Of a stretch of 64,000 bases of DNA, positions 8,351-15,672 are shown one piece after another. Source of the stretch: Escherichia coli (lineage in GTDB: Bacteria; Pseudomonadota; Gammaproteobacteria; Enterobacterales; Enterobacteriaceae); NCBI RefSeq assembly GCF_003018255.1, contig NZ_CP027440.1; one strand, written 5' to 3'. The notes under the pieces are model-generated. The model was not told the DNA's origin. It did no database searches and saw only the letters and a program-made list of their open reading frames with translations. Each line of letters starts with the position of its first letter. The stretch's first letter is position 1. The position numbers and the translations under genes were made by a program.

Positions 8351-9724
8351 ATGGCACTTTGGGGCGGGCGTTTTACCCAGGCAGCAGATCAACGGTTCAA
8401 ACAATTCAACGACTCACTGCGCTTTGATTACCGTCTGGCGGAGCAGGATATTGTTGGCTCTGTGGCCTGGTCCAAAGCCCTGGTAACGGTCGGCGTGTTA
8501 ACCGCAGAAGAGCAGGCGCAACTGGAAGAGGCGCTGAACGTGCTGCTGGAAGATGTTCGCGCCAGGCCACAACAAATCCTTGAAAGCGACGCCGAAGATA
8601 TCCATAGCTGGGTGGAAAGCAAACTGATCGACAAAGTGGGTCAGTTAGGCAAAAAACTGCATACCGGGCGTAGCCGTAATGATCAGGTAGCAACTGACCT
8701 GAAACTGTGGTGCAAAGATACCGTTAGCGAGTTGCTGACGGCTAACCGGCAGTTACAATCCGCTCTGGTCGAGACCGCGCAGAACAATCAGGACGCGGTG
8801 ATGCCGGGTTACACTCACCTGCAACGCGCCCAGCCGGTGACGTTCGCTCACTGGTGCCTGGCCTACGTTGAGATGCTGGCGCGTGATGAAAGCCGTTTGC
8901 AGGACGCGCTTAAGCGTCTGGATGTCAGCCCGCTAGGCTGTGGCGCACTGGCAGGAACGGCCTATGAAATCGACCGTGAACAGTTAGCAGGCTGGCTGGG
9001 CTTTGCTTCGGCGACCCGTAACAGTCTCGACAGCGTTTCTGACCGTGACCATGTGCTGGAACTGCTTTCTGCTGCCGCTATCGGCATGGTGCATCTGTCG
9101 CGTTTTGCTGAAGATCTGATTTTCTTTAACACCGGCGAAGCGGGGTTTGTGGAGCTTTCTGACCGTGTGACTTCCGGTTCATCATTAATGCCGCAGAAGA
9201 AAAACCCGGATGCGCTGGAGCTGATTCGCGGTAAATGCGGTCGGGTGCAGGGGGCGTTAACCGGCATGATGATGACGCTGAAAGGTTTGCCGCTGGCTTA
9301 CAACAAAGATATGCAGGAAGACAAAGAAGGTCTGTTCGACGCGCTCGATACCTGGCTGGACTGCCTGCATATGGCGGCGCTGGTGCTGGACGGCATTCAG
9401 GTGAAACGTCCGCGTTGCCAGGAAGCGGCGCAGCAGGGTTACGCCAACGCTACTGAACTGGCGGATTATCTGGTGGCGAAAGGCGTACCGTTCCGCGAGG
9501 CGCACCATATTGTGGGTGAAGCTGTGGTGGAAGCCATTCGTCAGGGCAAAGCGTTGGAAGATCTGCCGCTCAGTGAGTTGCAGAAATTCAGCCAGGTGAT
9601 TGGCGAAGATGTCTATCCGATTCTGTCGCTGCAATCGTGCCTCGACAAGCGTGCTGCAAAAGGCGGCGTCTCACCGCAGCAGGTGGCGCAGGCGATTGCT
9701 TTTGCGCAAGCTCGGTTAGAGTAG
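8351..9724 (+). CDS. argH: Argininosuccinate lyase ArgH (457 aa)
   Basis: Full [36 protein letters not shown] start; fumarate-lyase signature [12 protein letters not shown] present. Confidence 0.97.
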
Positions 9725-9764
9725 TTTGTTTATATTGCTCCCCTGAAAATGGGGAGCTTACCAC

Positions 9765-9821
9765 GCCTACAAAGTGCGACACTTCGTAGGCGGATAAGGC
9801 GTTTACGCCGCATCAGGCAGA
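9765..9821. repeat. REP element downstream of argH
   Basis: CGCCTACAAAGTGCGACACTTCGTAGGCGGATAAGGCGTTTACGCCGCATCAGGCAG palindromic REP-like unit. Confidence 0.6.
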
Positions 9822-10221
9822 AATTTGTCAGTATTCTGGTGACCTTAAATTTAACGCCCAACCAGAACCATTATTTGTCACATTCCTTTTTATTCTTGCG
9901 TCTTCTTTACCTTCACTCTCCCCATAAAAATTATATTTTCAATACATCAGCCAATACATACTTTAATTAATTGAATATAATTCATTTCTATTGCTGTGTT
10001 CATTTTTAATGATTAATGGAGTTTGTTATGTGATTATTTAACGTGTTGTTTTAACGATGATAGCTAATTATTCAGGTGGTTTTTGAGGGTGTTTTTTCTC
10101 CTCGGTAGAAATTTTTATTTTTAATGTGATCATGGTTGAATAATCGCTCTTTCTCTCTTGTATGGTAGTAGGCGCAAAATTAAGTTTGAAACGTCTATTT
10201 ACAACACAGGAGATTGCAATA

Positions 10222-11436
10222 ATGAAAATTATTGCTGCAGATGTTTTTGTTACTTGCCCAGGGCGTAATTTCGTTACGCTTAAAATAACCACTGCAAGCG
10301 GACTTTGTGGATTAGGAGATGCCACGTTAAATGGTCGCGAATTGTCGGTCGCTTCTTATCTGAAAGATCATCTTTGTCCACAACTAATTGGCCGCGATGC
10401 CAGCCGTATCGAAGATATCTGGCAATTCTTTTATAAAGGTGCTTACTGGCGACGTGGCCCCGTCACGATGTCAGCCATTTCTGCCATTGATATGGCGTTG
10501 TGGGATATCAAAGCAAAAGCGGCAAATATGCCATTGTATCAACTGCTTGGTGGTGCTTCTCGTGAAGGCGTTATGGTTTATTGCCACACCACCGGGCGTA
10601 CGATTGATGAAGTCCTTGAAGACTATGCAAAGCACCAGCAGATGGGCTTTAAGGCGATTCGTGTGCAGTGTGGTGTACCGGGTATGCAAACCACCTATGG
10701 TCTGGCGAAGGGCAAAGGACTGGCGTATGAACCAGCAACCAAAGGCCTGTGGCCAGAAGAGCAGTTGTGGTCTTCAGAAAAGTATCTCGATTTTACGCCG
10801 AAGTTATTTGAAGCGGTGCGTAATAAGTTCGGTTTTAACGAACATCTGTTGCATGACATGCACCATCGCCTGACCCCCATCGAAGCGGCGCGCTTTGGGA
10901 AGAGCATTGAAGATTACCGCCTGTTCTGGATGGAAGATCCGACGCCTGCCGAGAATCAGGAATGTTTTCGTCTGATTCGTCAGCATACCGTGACGCCGAT
11001 TGCGGTCGGTGAAGTGTTTAACAGTATCTGGGACTGCAAGCAGTTAATCGAAGAGCAGCTGATTGACTATATTCGCACGACGATTACCCATGCAGGCGGC
11101 ATTACCGGGATGCGACGGATTGCCGATTTTGCATCGCTTTATCAGGTACGTACCGGTTCGCATGGCCCTTCAGATTTATCGCCTGTTTGCCATGCGGCGG
11201 CGCTGCATTTTGACCTCTGGGTGCCAAACTTTGGCGTTCAGGAGTACATGGGCTATTCCGAACAAATGCTTGAAGTCTTCCCGCATAGCTGGCGCTTCGA
11301 TGAAGGTTATATGCACCCAGGCGATGAACCGGGGCTGGGTATTTCTTTCGATGAGAAACTGGCGGCGAAATATCCGTATGACCCGGCGTATCTCCCCGTC
11401 GCACGACTGGAAGATGGCACATTGTGGAACTGGTAA
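10222..11436 (+). CDS. Enolase-superfamily dehydratase, RspA / D-mannonate dehydratase (ManD) subgroup paralog (404 aa); accessory gene
   Basis: ORF 10162..11436; RBS AGGAG 10 nt upstream of ATG 10222; product [47 protein letters not shown]... is near-colinear with recalled E. coli RspA; putative metal-ligand/catalytic motifs [20 protein letters not shown] present. Confidence 0.85.
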
Positions 11437-11502
11437 TAGCGGTTCGCTTAATTATTTTCTGAATATTCATCAAATCGATTAATTCCGCTCAAGGAGCTAA
11501 AA

Positions 11503-12786
11503 ATGGACGTTGATGTGTCAACCAGTGTTGCGGGTAATAAACCGCAACGGATTCGTCGTATTCAGACAGTGACCCTGGTTTTATTATTTATGGCGGGGAT
11601 CGTTAATTTTCTCGACCGTTCGTCATTGAGCGTGGCAGGTGAAGCAATTCGTGGCGAGTTAGGATTATCCGCTACCGAGTTTGGTGTTTTGCTTTCTGCA
11701 TTTTCTCTGTCTTATGGTTTTTCACAACTTCCTTCCGGTATTTTGCTAGACCGCTTTGGCCCACGAATAGTGTTAGGCGCAGGCTTAATATTCTGGTCAT
11801 TAATGCAGGCATTAACAGGAATGGTTAATTCTTTTAGCCACTTTATTTTAATGCGTATCGGTCTGGGTATTGGCGAAGCGCCATTTATGCCTGCGGGAGT
11901 AAAGTCGATCACCGACTGGTATGCGCAAAAAGAACGCGGCACGGCGCTGGGGATTTTTAACTCATCTACCGTTATCGGTCAGGCTATCGCGCCTCCTGCT
12001 CTTGTATTGATGCAACTGGCATGGGGCTGGCGGACGATGTTTGTCATCATCGGCGTAGCAGGGATTCTGGTTGGGATCTGTTGGTACGCGTGGTATCGCA
12101 ACCGGGCGCAGTTTGTCCTGACCGAGGAAGAACGGACATATCTCTCCGCGCCGGTTAAACCGCGTCCACAGTTACAATTTAGCGAGTGGCTGGCGCTGTT
12201 TAAGCATCGGACAACCTGGGGGATGATTTTAGGTTTCTCTGGCGTCAATTATACCGGTTGGCTCTACATCGCGTGGTTACCCGGTTATTTGCAGGCCGAA
12301 CAAGGTTTCAGTCTGGCGAAAACCGGTTGGGTGGCGGCAATTCCTTTCCTCGCGGCGGCGGTCGGGATGTGGGTTAACGGTATTGTTGTCGATCGGCTGG
12401 CGAAAAAAGGCTATGACCTGGCGAAGACGCGTAAAACGGCGATTGTCTGCGGTTTGATGATGTCGGCATTAGGCACGTTGCTGGTCGTGCAATCTTCCTC
12501 GCCAGCCCAGGCGGTAGCGTTTATCTCAATGGCGCTGTTCTGCGTGCATTTCGCGGGAACATCTGCATGGGGGCTGGTGCAGGTGATGGTGTCAGAAACA
12601 AAAGTGGCTTCCATCGCCGGGATTCAAAACTTTGGCAGTTTTGTTTTTGCTTCCTTTGCTCCGATCGTAACCGGTTGGGTCGTGGATACCACACACTCGT
12701 TTAATCTGGCGCTGGTTATCGCGGCCTGTGTGACGTTCACCGGGGCGCTGTGTTACTTCTTTATTGTCAAAGATCGGATTGAGTAA
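11503..12786 (+). CDS. MFS transporter, anion:cation symporter (ACS) family, putative acid-sugar/aldonate permease (427 aa); accessory gene
   Basis: RBS AAGGAG upstream; about 12 predicted TM helices; motifs NFLDRSSLSVAG, GIGEAPFMP, RKTAIVCGL as in DgoT/RhmT/GudP-type transporters; 66-bp gap with no terminator after the dehydratase suggests co-transcription. Confidence 0.8.
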   Translation: MDVDVSTSVAGNKPQRIRRIQTVTLVLLFMAGIVNFLDRSSLSVAGEAIRGELGLSATEFGVLLSAFSLSYGFSQLPSGILLDRFGPRIVLGAGLIFWSLMQALTGMVNSFSHFILMRIGLGIGEAPFMPAGVKSITDWYAQKERGTALGIFNSSTVIGQAIAPPALVLMQLAWGWRTMFVIIGVAGILVGICWYAWYRNRAQFVLTEEERTYLSAPVKPRPQLQFSEWLALFKHRTTWGMILGFSGVNYTGWLYIAWLPGYLQAEQGFSLAKTGWVAAIPFLAAAVGMWVNGIVVDRLAKKGYDLAKTRKTAIVCGLMMSALGTLLVVQSSSPAQAVAFISMALFCVHFAGTSAWGLVQVMVSETKVASIAGIQNFGSFVFASFAPIVTGWVVDTTHSFNLALVIAACVTFTGALCYFFIVKDRIE

Positions 12787-12825
12787 CCGTTACTATCAGG
12801 CTCTCTTGCTGTGGGCCTGTAGAAT

Positions 12826-12942
12826 AAAAAAAAGCGGATCCTGGAGATCCGCAAAAGTTCACGTTGGCTTTAGTTATTCGAGTTGAGAAACTCTCGAAAC
12901 GGGCAGTGACTTCAAGGGTTAAAAGAGGTGCCGCTCCGTTTC
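12826..12942 (-). ncRNA. oxyS: OxyS small regulatory RNA
   Basis: Reverse complement reads GAAACGGAGCGGCACCTCTTTTAACCCTTGAAGTCACTGCCCGTTTCGAGAGTTTCTCAACTCGAATAACTAAAGCCAACGTGAACTTTTGCGGATCTCCAGGATCCGCTTTTTTTT, the known OxyS sequence with its terminator hairpin; divergent from oxyR. Confidence 0.93.
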
Positions 12943-13037: not shown

Positions 13038-13955
13038 ATGAATATTCGTGATCTTGAGTACCTGGTGGCATTGGCCGAACACCGCCATTTTCGGCGTGCG
13101 GCAGATTCCTGCCACGTTAGCCAGCCGACGCTTAGCGGGCAAATTCGTAAGCTGGAAGATGAGTTGGGTGTGATGTTGCTGGAGCGGACCAGCCGTAAAG
13201 TGTTATTCACCCAGGCGGGAATGCTGCTGGTGGATCAGGCGCGTACCGTGCTGCGTGAGGTGAAAGTCCTTAAAGAGATGGCAAGCCAGCAGGGCGAGAC
13301 GATGTCCGGACCGCTGCATATTGGTCTGATTCCCACGGTTGGACCGTACCTGCTACCGCATATTATCCCGATGCTGCACCAGACCTTTCCAAAGCTGGAA
13401 ATGTATCTGCATGAAGCACAGACCCACCAGTTACTGGCGCAACTGGACAGCGGCAAACTCGATTGCGTGATCCTCGCGCTGGTGAAAGAGAGCGAAGCAT
13501 TCATTGAAGTGCCGTTGTTTGATGAGCCAATGTTGCTGGCTATCTATGAAGACCATCCGTGGGCGAACCGCGAATGCGTACCGATGGCCGATCTGGCAGG
13601 GGAAAAACTGCTGATGCTGGAAGATGGTCACTGTTTGCGCGATCAGGCAATGGGTTTCTGTTTTGAAGCCGGGGCGGATGAAGATACACACTTCCGCGCG
13701 ACCAGCCTGGAAACTCTGCGCAACATGGTGGCGGCAGGTAGCGGGATCACTTTACTGCCTGCGCTGGCTGTGCCGCCGGAACGCAAACGTGATGGGGTTG
13801 TTTATCTGCCATGCATTAAGCCGGAACCACGCCGCACTATTGGCCTGGTTTATCGTCCTGGCTCACCACTGCGCAGCCGCTATGAGCAGCTGGCAGAGGC
13901 CATCCGCGCAAGAATGGATGGCCATTTCGATAAAGTGTTAAAACAGGCGGTTTAA
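13038..13955 (+). CDS. oxyR: LysR-family oxidative stress regulator OxyR (305 aa)
   Basis: ORF 12993..13955; the internal start giving [44 protein letters not shown] matches OxyR; redox cysteines present (…[18 protein letters not shown]…). Confidence 0.96.
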
Positions 13956-15338: not shown

Positions 15339-15672
15339 GGTAGGGCTTACCTGTTCTTATACATAAAAGCAACAGAATGGTAACATTTTATCGCGGGTAA
15401 GCCAATTGATCCCCGTCATTTATCTGGCTATATCGTGAGCGGCCTTTGCTTTGTCTGTTTCTTACTTTTGACCTGAACGTTTTATTGGATTTTTATCGAC
15501 GATACTCTCCGTTTAAGCGGCAGGTTTCCGTTGTACGTAAAAGAACCGGCCAAAGAATTGCAGTAAATATGTTTTATTGCGTTACCGTTCATTCACAATA
15601 CTGGAGCAATCCAGTATGTTCATTCTCTGGTATAGTGCCAGCAGTACTTTTGGCAAGGATTCAGACATCGTG

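Follow-up and report, generated by a model that had tools for sequence, protein, structure and literature searches.

Gene content of the argH-oxyS interval

The stretch of Escherichia coli DNA analysed here (the window; 64,000 nucleotides of contig NZ_CP027440.1, assembly GCF_003018255.1) carries two genes between argH and oxyS, manD and a gene for a permease of the major facilitator superfamily (MFS). Both are absent from K-12 MG1655, where argH is followed by oxyS after 54 bp. A base-by-base comparison with K-12 delimits the differential segment exactly to positions 9725-12825 (3,101 bases), as homology is lost at the argH stop codon (9724) and regained from 12826; according to the open reading frame (ORF) list argH occupies 8351-9724 on the + strand and oxyR starts at 13038. 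A preliminary description, made from the letters of the window alone, had placed an accessory insertion of about 3.1 kb here, with two co-oriented genes 66 bp apart and no terminator between them, a repetitive extragenic palindromic (REP) element at the left edge and no integrase, insertion sequence (IS) or flanking direct repeats, and had stated that K-12 argH is followed almost directly by oxyS. Apart from the direction implied by the word insertion, which is discussed below, this layout is borne out in full.

The first gene, manD (10222-11436, + strand), encodes a protein of 404 amino acids, which is assigned by NCBIfam, Pfam and PDB matches and by its RefSeq name to the D-mannonate dehydratases (ManD subgroup, enolase superfamily). 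Its start, the ATG at 10222, is set by homology and by the RefSeq annotation, the mechanical ORF beginning at 10162, and the Shine-Dalgarno sequence AGGAG is found at 10208-10212. ManD has the two-domain fold of the enolase superfamily, an N-terminal capping domain (Pfam MR_MLE_N, residues 14-110, E 1.5e-33) followed by a C-terminal barrel (MR_MLE_C, residues 140-379, E 1.3e-45), and passes the NCBIfam ManD equivalog NF043051 over residues 1-404 (731.5 bits, cutoff 550). It aligns in full length to 15 solved ManD-subgroup chains, and its closest solved relatives were deposited as mannonate dehydratase or RspA; the best match is 4IL2, i.e. RspA from strain CFT073 (899 bits, 91% identical), and 4E4F, a mannonate dehydratase from Pectobacterium, is matched end-to-end. 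ManD and K-12 RspA, both 404 amino acids long, share 91.6% identity without a gap, in line with the near-colinearity noted beforehand. All 18 enterobacterial ManD/RspA sequences compared have R147, Y159, D212, H214, E238 and E264, which presumably represent the catalytic residues of the subgroup, a match made by motif position with no alignment to 2QJJ displayed. For ManD from N. aromaticivorans, Rakus et al. are said to have described in 2007 D210/E236/E262 as carboxylate ligands of Mg2+, Y159/R147 as general-base dyad and H212 as general acid. No metal ligand is missing in the window protein, and the gene is intact rather than a pseudogene. Taken together, the argH-linked manD is predicted to encode a D-mannonate dehydratase, which would convert D-mannonate to 2-keto-3-deoxy-D-gluconate (KDG).

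Six substitutions are private to the argH-linked ManD lineage (V4I, H61S, M161L, T185S, K369E and E375S), the respective positions being invariant in all other enterobacterial ManD/RspA sequences compared. M161L (window position 10702) falls in the active-site lid loop, only two residues away from the catalytic Tyr159.

The second gene (11503-12786, + strand) encodes a 427-amino-acid MFS permease of the anion:cation symporter (ACS, TC 2.A.1.14) type, as indicated by Pfam MFS_1 (E 5e-53), by its match to DgoT and by the gene pairing in other genera. The best NCBIfam match is the ACS model TIGR00893 (2A0114), which is covered in full length with E 3e-82 and 277 bits, i.e. below the cutoff of 395, and the best PDB match is the ACS-family D-galactonate transporter DgoT (6E9N, E 1.9e-57) with an identity of about one third, which fits the ACS-family assignment proposed originally. 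In the alignment with 6E9N, D38, R39 and E125 of the permease correspond to D46, R47 and E133 of DgoT. The Asp-Arg pair in TM1 and the Glu in TM4 of DgoT reportedly serve proton coupling and carboxylate binding, a finding attributed to Leano et al. in 2019. The spacer of 66 nt between the two genes (11437-11502) contains a Shine-Dalgarno sequence (AAGGAG, 11491-11496) and no significant structure (fold z = -0.41); the terminator search found in it only one weak terminator-like pattern without a T run, and no convincing + strand terminator separates the two genes.

The ORF list contains only these two long ORFs in the segment, and none of the size of a transposase or integrase gene; likewise, no regulator, kinase, aldolase, IS or integrase is present within the segment according to the ORF list and the RefSeq annotation. 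Direct or inverted repeats flanking the segment boundaries were not found either. With neither integrase, transposase, IS nor boundary repeats, and with argH and oxyS as its flanks, the segment does not have the features of a mobile element or genomic island.

At the left edge, directly 3' of the argH stop codon, sequence and fold indicate a hairpin (GCTCCCC-loop-GGGGAGC, 9737-9757, + strand) with a short U tail, which stands in for the canonical argH terminator held in the K-12 54-bp spacer. It is followed by a palindromic REP/BIME-like element (9765-9820, + strand), and the region 9725-9830 folds with z = -5.8. The REP 23-mer at 9792-9814 is found a second time, without mismatch, at 230-252 on the - strand, 0 copies being expected by chance, and REP copies are also present elsewhere in two loci from other Escherichia (L004 and L005). 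To these two loci the AT-rich non-coding region upstream of manD (9830-10221, + strand; 30.9% G+C), delimited by composition and alignment, is 83-88% identical.

At the right edge, a hairpin 3' of the permease stop codon (12797-12819, + strand) is followed by an A run and not by a U run, i.e. it is non-canonical as an intrinsic terminator. Indeed, both hairpins 3' of the permease gene are followed by A-rich, not U-rich, sequence on the + strand, and the terminator search reported no + strand terminator between 12787 and 13100. The gene for OxyS (12833-12942, - strand; Rfam RF00035, 139.5 bits), which forms the right flank and lies outside the accessory segment, converges on the operon. As the operon, unlike the K-12 interval with its proper argH terminator, lacks a canonical + strand terminator, induced manD-permease transcription might run antisense through oxyS into oxyR. 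We consider such read-through improbable; if it took place, sugar-acid catabolism would be tied to the OxyS/OxyR oxidative-stress circuit in about one third of E. coli strains.

Relation to the rsp/ydf locus and its promoters

The genes for permease and ManD are also neighbours, in either order, in Enterobacter, Klebsiella, Raoultella, Pluralibacter, Lelliottia and Siccibacter, where they belong to a locus of the type ynfF-ynfC-speG-ynfB-[MFS, ManD]-rspB-ydfJ-like-ydfI-ydfH-ydfG (the rsp/ydf locus). The proteins encoded there are 82-89% (permease) and 91-94% (ManD) identical to those of the window. The ynfC-ydfG neighbourhood is the very neighbourhood of rspAB in K-12, where it lacks the ACS permease. 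From gene order and identity, the E. coli pair looks like the manD-permease core of the rsp/ydf locus moved to the argH-oxyS interval.

The promoter region upstream of manD has the same architecture as the K-12 rspA promoter, i.e. TGTGATC, 25 nt, an identical 13-mer and a -10 element TAnnTT. In the window the 13-mer CTTGTATGGTAGT (10157-10169, + strand), the signature of rsp/ydf promoters, holds the putative -35 element TTGTAT (10158-10163) and the right RspR half-box; the putative -10 element TAAGTT (10181-10186, + strand), identified by homology via its invariant TA..TT columns, follows 17 nt after TTGTAT, and a CRP-like half-site TGTGATC (10125-10131, + strand) is located 25 nt upstream of the 13-mer, a spacing as at K-12 rspA, and may bind CRP. 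The manD transcript is predicted to start near 10193 and its leader to comprise about 29 nt, similar to the 30-nt leader of K-12 rspA, whose transcription start was mapped 30 nt upstream of the start codon (PMC8249747).

The 13-mer is invariant in all ten aligned manD/rspA promoters and essentially invariant over 27 promoter instances; TGTGATC is present in 24 of these 27 and is missing only in three ydfI promoters. Each rsp/ydf locus contains one to three copies of the 13-mer, always intergenic, in one orientation and upstream of MFS, manD or ydfI, at distances of 56-105 nt from the homology-defined start codons (over-extended mechanical ORF starts give shorter distances), and the 64-kb window has a single exact copy. 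Since it is near-invariant and lies separately upstream of permease, manD and ydfI within single loci, the 13-mer behaves, in the promoters compared, as a regulon-specific element.

The regulator in question is RspR (YdfH), whose footprint on the rspA promoter covers 31 bp with ATACnnGTAT at its centre, and which represses rspA (Shimada et al. 2021, PMC8249747). The 13-mer of the window lies within reach of this footprint, and a complete ATACnnGTAT box was not found at the manD promoter of the window, half of it being present. Within the rsp locus the ATAC half-site occurs only in manD/rspA promoters and is absent from permease and ydfI promoters. The published RspR box is less strictly conserved than the 13-mer (loci L007-L014 and L021), and the true RspR recognition element may differ from the published palindrome. 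Thus, although no regulator is adjacent, as the preliminary description had correctly stated for the segment, this statement can be refined: as the manD promoter is of the rspA type, the regulator is probably supplied in trans. Most likely, the manD operon would be controlled by the repressor RspR/YdfH and probably by cAMP-CRP.

Age and distribution of the alleles

The arrangement argH-manD-MFS-oxyR is also found in three other Escherichia species, including Escherichia sp. E1V33 and E. whittamii. In comparison with these two, manD and permease show a synonymous divergence (dS) of 0.17-0.37, argH and oxyR one of 0.26-0.32, and the ratio of nonsynonymous to synonymous divergence (dN/dS) is 0.010-0.026 for manD and permease. 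Overall, manD has a dN/dS of 0.010-0.046 and the permease gene one of about 0-0.026, values as low as those of argH and oxyR, i.e. both genes are intact and under strong purifying selection. At the same argH-oxyS site Citrobacter sp. R56 has an intact permease gene (92% amino acid identity) behind an in-frame ManD relic of 63 codons (L019, 7693-7884), a fusion of the 28 N-terminal with about 35 C-terminal manD codons, with an intact rsp-type promoter motif still upstream. As dS equals that of the flanks across Escherichia and as a decayed copy is present at the same site in Citrobacter, these data argue for an old paralogue that would have been inherited vertically within Escherichia and maintained by selection, rather than for a recent insertion.

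The paralogy of manD and K-12 rspA appears to be old, too, because synonymous sites are saturated (dS 2.4). Moreover, the window ManD is about equally distant (91-94% identity) from the ManDs of all other genera compared. An origin of manD as a recent rspA duplicate was rejected in view of this saturation and of the equal distance to every genus.

The synonymous divergence fits the earlier suggestion of an ancient indel or recombination variant rather than an active mobile element. The term accessory insertion is right in its first part, but its second part probably gives the wrong direction: since three other Escherichia species have the pair at this site and a Citrobacter has it in decayed form, the short K-12 interval is probably the derived allele. 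The K-12 54-bp spacer has no significant similarity to the 3.1-kb segment, i.e. none better than that of shuffled sequence, and the idea that it is a deletion scar of the segment was rejected on this ground. Because of this missing similarity, the 54-bp and the 3.1-kb states may be regarded as alternative alleles without visible insert scars. The identity between the window and CFT073 forms a mosaic (permease gene 99.9%, manD 98.3%, argH 99.1%, oxyR 98.9%), which indicates putative recombination breakpoints inside the operon. Alleles were likely exchanged by homologous recombination in argH and oxyR, a process distinct from recent insertion.

Comparison of the argH-oxyR interval across complete E. 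coli genomes, as had been proposed, revealed the segment (at least 80% covered) in 1,860 of 5,426 (34%), always on the chromosome, whereas 3,553 (65%), including O157:H7, have the contiguous K-12-type junction. Uropathogen CFT073 carries both the manD-permease pair and rspAB, the latter being present in 4,922 of the 5,426 genomes (~91%). For the exact ManD as for the exact permease, at least 1,000 contigs are on record, and RefSeq labels the two 'manD: D-mannonate dehydratase ManD' and 'MFS transporter'. The operon is a known, annotated and ordinary accessory sugar-acid module; nevertheless, a literature search for the argH-oxyS manD-permease locus retrieved no paper studying it.

A third argH-oxyS allele of ~12.6 kb, found in 147 of the 5,426 genomes, contains an extra sugar module of ~9.5 kb (e.g. 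strain MLI106K1, NZ_CP116931.1; L027, 3845-13450). The order of genes is argH, an araD-like 4-epimerase, a DeoR regulator, a sugar ABC transporter, an L-ribulose-5-P 3-epimerase, an FGGY kinase, a degenerate oxyS copy, manD-MFS and the true oxyS. The degenerate copy (L027, 4201-4323) scores 35.5 bits (E 1.2e-4) with the Rfam OxyS model and suggests that, before its entry by recombination, the extra module directly adjoined oxyS in a donor. Alignment with the MLI106K1 allele shows that only the last ~200 bp of the AT-rich region upstream of manD are common to both, and the K-12 54-bp spacer has no match to the argH-proximal end of this allele either. Other variants are strain HCM-28C-2 (L030, 1721-2418), which has an IS1 upstream of manD and is otherwise 100% identical to the window, and strain Ecol_881 (L026, 4764-5771), in which the permease gene is shortened to 335 codons. 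The nearby sthA-fabR interval (window positions 15339-15669) is also dimorphic, with only ~330 bp in the window and K-12 and with genes for an M20 aminoacylase and a citrate/proton-symporter-like MFS protein in CFT073 (L028, 896-3421) and in other Escherichia (L003-L005).

Substrate, alternative explanations and known systems

Gene content, integrity, protein family, selection, distribution and promoter-motif conservation are established directly. As to the substrate, the preliminary description had held that it cannot be read from sequence. This stands for the specificity of the permease, but gene context would narrow the choice to D-mannonate. Rouxiella, Pectobacterium, Leminorella and Providencia possess a sister clade of the permease, with 69-73% identity, in a unit that consists of a divergent GntR/FCD regulator, the permease and, directly following, uxuA, with surrounding genes that differ among the four genera. 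UxuA of these units (TIGR00695, 644 bits) is a mannonate dehydratase that is non-homologous to ManD. The possibility that the regulator of the UxuA modules is an RspR orthologue linking both module types was rejected, as it has only ~27% identity and a different operator. As the permease subfamily is paired with one or the other of two unrelated mannonate dehydratases and with no further enzyme, import of D-mannonate is the simplest reading, and we infer that the permease is a D-mannonate:H+ symporter.

Thus, we regard it as rather probable that the segment is a two-gene operon for the uptake and dehydration of D-mannonate, with an rspA-type promoter, and a displaced piece of the rsp/ydf locus. 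Transcription would start from this promoter ~30 nt upstream of manD, with RspR/YdfH and probably cAMP-CRP acting in trans. The permease would import D-mannonate, or a hexonate that is converted to D-mannonate, ManD would dehydrate D-mannonate to KDG, and KdgK and Eda of the core metabolism would turn KDG into pyruvate and glyceraldehyde-3-phosphate. The KdgK/Eda route from KDG is an established core pathway, and the lack of an adjacent kinase or aldolase would be explained by KDG entering it. The pair would have been held at the argH-oxyS site since before Escherichia diversified.

Several points weigh against this reading. The RspR box of the window reads TCTCTTGTAT, i.e. it has only the right half with TCTC in place of the left half, and binding of RspR to this half box is uncertain; other genera likewise have TCTC upstream of the permease gene and ydfI. 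The specificity of the permease is unreadable from its sequence, DgoT as nearest characterised relative being only about one third identical. E. coli RspA is said to be a ManD of low efficiency for which no physiological role was demonstrated, UxuA being the main enzyme, as Wichelecki et al. reportedly concluded in 2014, and the argH-linked ManD may be equally inefficient. In some genera the wider rsp/ydf locus also contains uxaC and a GPH-family transporter, so that a hexuronate or L-gulonate might be the substrate. Finally, the direction of the indel is unreadable from the junctions, because the K-12 spacer and the segment share no sequence.

The main alternative as to the substrate is a cryptic L-gulonate route, in which the permease would import L-gulonate, RspB and YdfI would act in trans to yield D-fructuronate and then D-mannonate, and ManD would again produce KDG; the pair would then supply the ACS-type transporter that is absent from the E. 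coli rsp locus. In other genera permease and ManD indeed adjoin rspB (PRK10083) and a ydfI-type fructuronate reductase, one promoter signature is common to permease, manD and ydfI, rspAB is present in most E. coli, and RspB is reportedly an L-gulonate 5-dehydrogenase, again according to Wichelecki et al. in 2014. However, in four genera the related permease clade has UxuA as its only partner, with no dehydrogenase nearby, which speaks for D-mannonate itself, and CFT073, which has the pair, is said not to grow on L-gulonate unless derepressed; we therefore consider this route unlikely. That the dehydratase acts on another acid sugar, e.g. D-gluconate or D-altronate, and that the module handles that compound is quite improbable: some members of the ManD subgroup dehydrate D-gluconate, one source labels the exact protein 'bifunctional D-altronate/D-mannonate dehydratase', and the lineage-specific M161L lies close to Tyr159 in the lid loop, but the protein passes the ManD equivalog, is 91-94% identical to the ManDs of rsp loci, and the alternative partner of the permease subfamily, UxuA, is mannonate-specific.

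Two further alternatives concern not the substrate, but the fate of the pair. It might be a relic without current role, i.e. a low-efficiency dehydratase and a permease not yet lost, as the 63-amino-acid ManD remnant in Citrobacter sp. R56, the 335-amino-acid permease in Ecol_881, the IS1 in the promoter region of HCM-28C-2 and the absence of the pair from 65% of the E. coli genomes could suggest; moreover, low-efficiency ManDs are not known to have a role. Yet dN/dS of both genes is as low as that of argH and oxyR over a dS of ~0.3, neither frame is disrupted in the window or on the 1,000 or more contigs that carry each gene, and the promoter is conserved, which makes a relic an improbable explanation. 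A recent genomic islet, inserted horizontally into a K-12-like ancestor, would fit the upstream region with its 31% G+C, genes with ~50% G+C as compared to a window mean of 52%, the mosaic identity to CFT073 and a locus that is a hotspot, as illustrated by the third allele with its ~9.5-kb sugar module in 147 genomes. Nonetheless, mobility genes and target duplications are missing, synonymous divergence equals that of the flanks across Escherichia and the same site is occupied in Citrobacter, so that recent insertion is very improbable.

The locus is a clean and common dimorphism of the E. coli chromosome adjoining oxyS/oxyR and as such of modest importance. What is new are assignments inferred from context, i.e. 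D-mannonate as substrate, membership in the rsp regulon, along with the identity of its regulator, and the status as ancestral allele, along with the direction of the indel; none of them is surprising. If they are correct, some lineages, including CFT073, gain a third mannonate dehydratase and a dedicated permease, and a so far uncharacterised permease subfamily is predicted to import D-mannonate. For the RspR regulon, reported to have a single target in K-12, a second target is predicted in strains with the 3.1-kb allele. In strains carrying the pair, rspA knockouts are confounded by a 91%-identical paralogue, and the second ManD of CFT073 may duplicate the function of RspA and UxuA, which would explain the absent rspA phenotype there.

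Among the closest known systems is rspAB itself. RspA (PDB 4IL2) and ManD have the same length, align without gaps at 91.6% identity and share catalytic residues and promoter architecture. However, the two genes reside at different chromosomal sites and are separated by a dS of 2.4, the partner of manD is an ACS permease, whereas that of rspA is the dehydrogenase RspB, the window lacks the left RspR half-box, and the segment is present in 34% of the genomes as compared to ~91% for rspAB. Both genes, under the same promoter signature, are also part of the rsp/ydf locus of Klebsiella, Enterobacter, Raoultella, Lelliottia and Siccibacter, whereas the argH-oxyS interval of E. coli holds the two-gene core only, dehydrogenases and the GntR-type regulator being located elsewhere on the chromosome. 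The GntR/FCD-MFS-uxuA modules are likewise minimal units of a transporter, 69-73% identical to the permease, and a mannonate dehydratase, but UxuA has an unrelated fold, and these modules have their own divergent regulator, which is not RspR and has a different operator. Finally, dgoT/dgoD, gudP/gudD and rhmT/rhmD of E. coli are modules of an ACS-family permease and an enolase-superfamily dehydratase, i.e. they exhibit the same pairing, and DgoT is the closest solved permease structure with the key residues retained, despite an identity of only about one third. Unlike the segment described here, the dgo, gud and rhm operons possess their own regulator, kinase and aldolase, as their keto-deoxy products differ from KDG.

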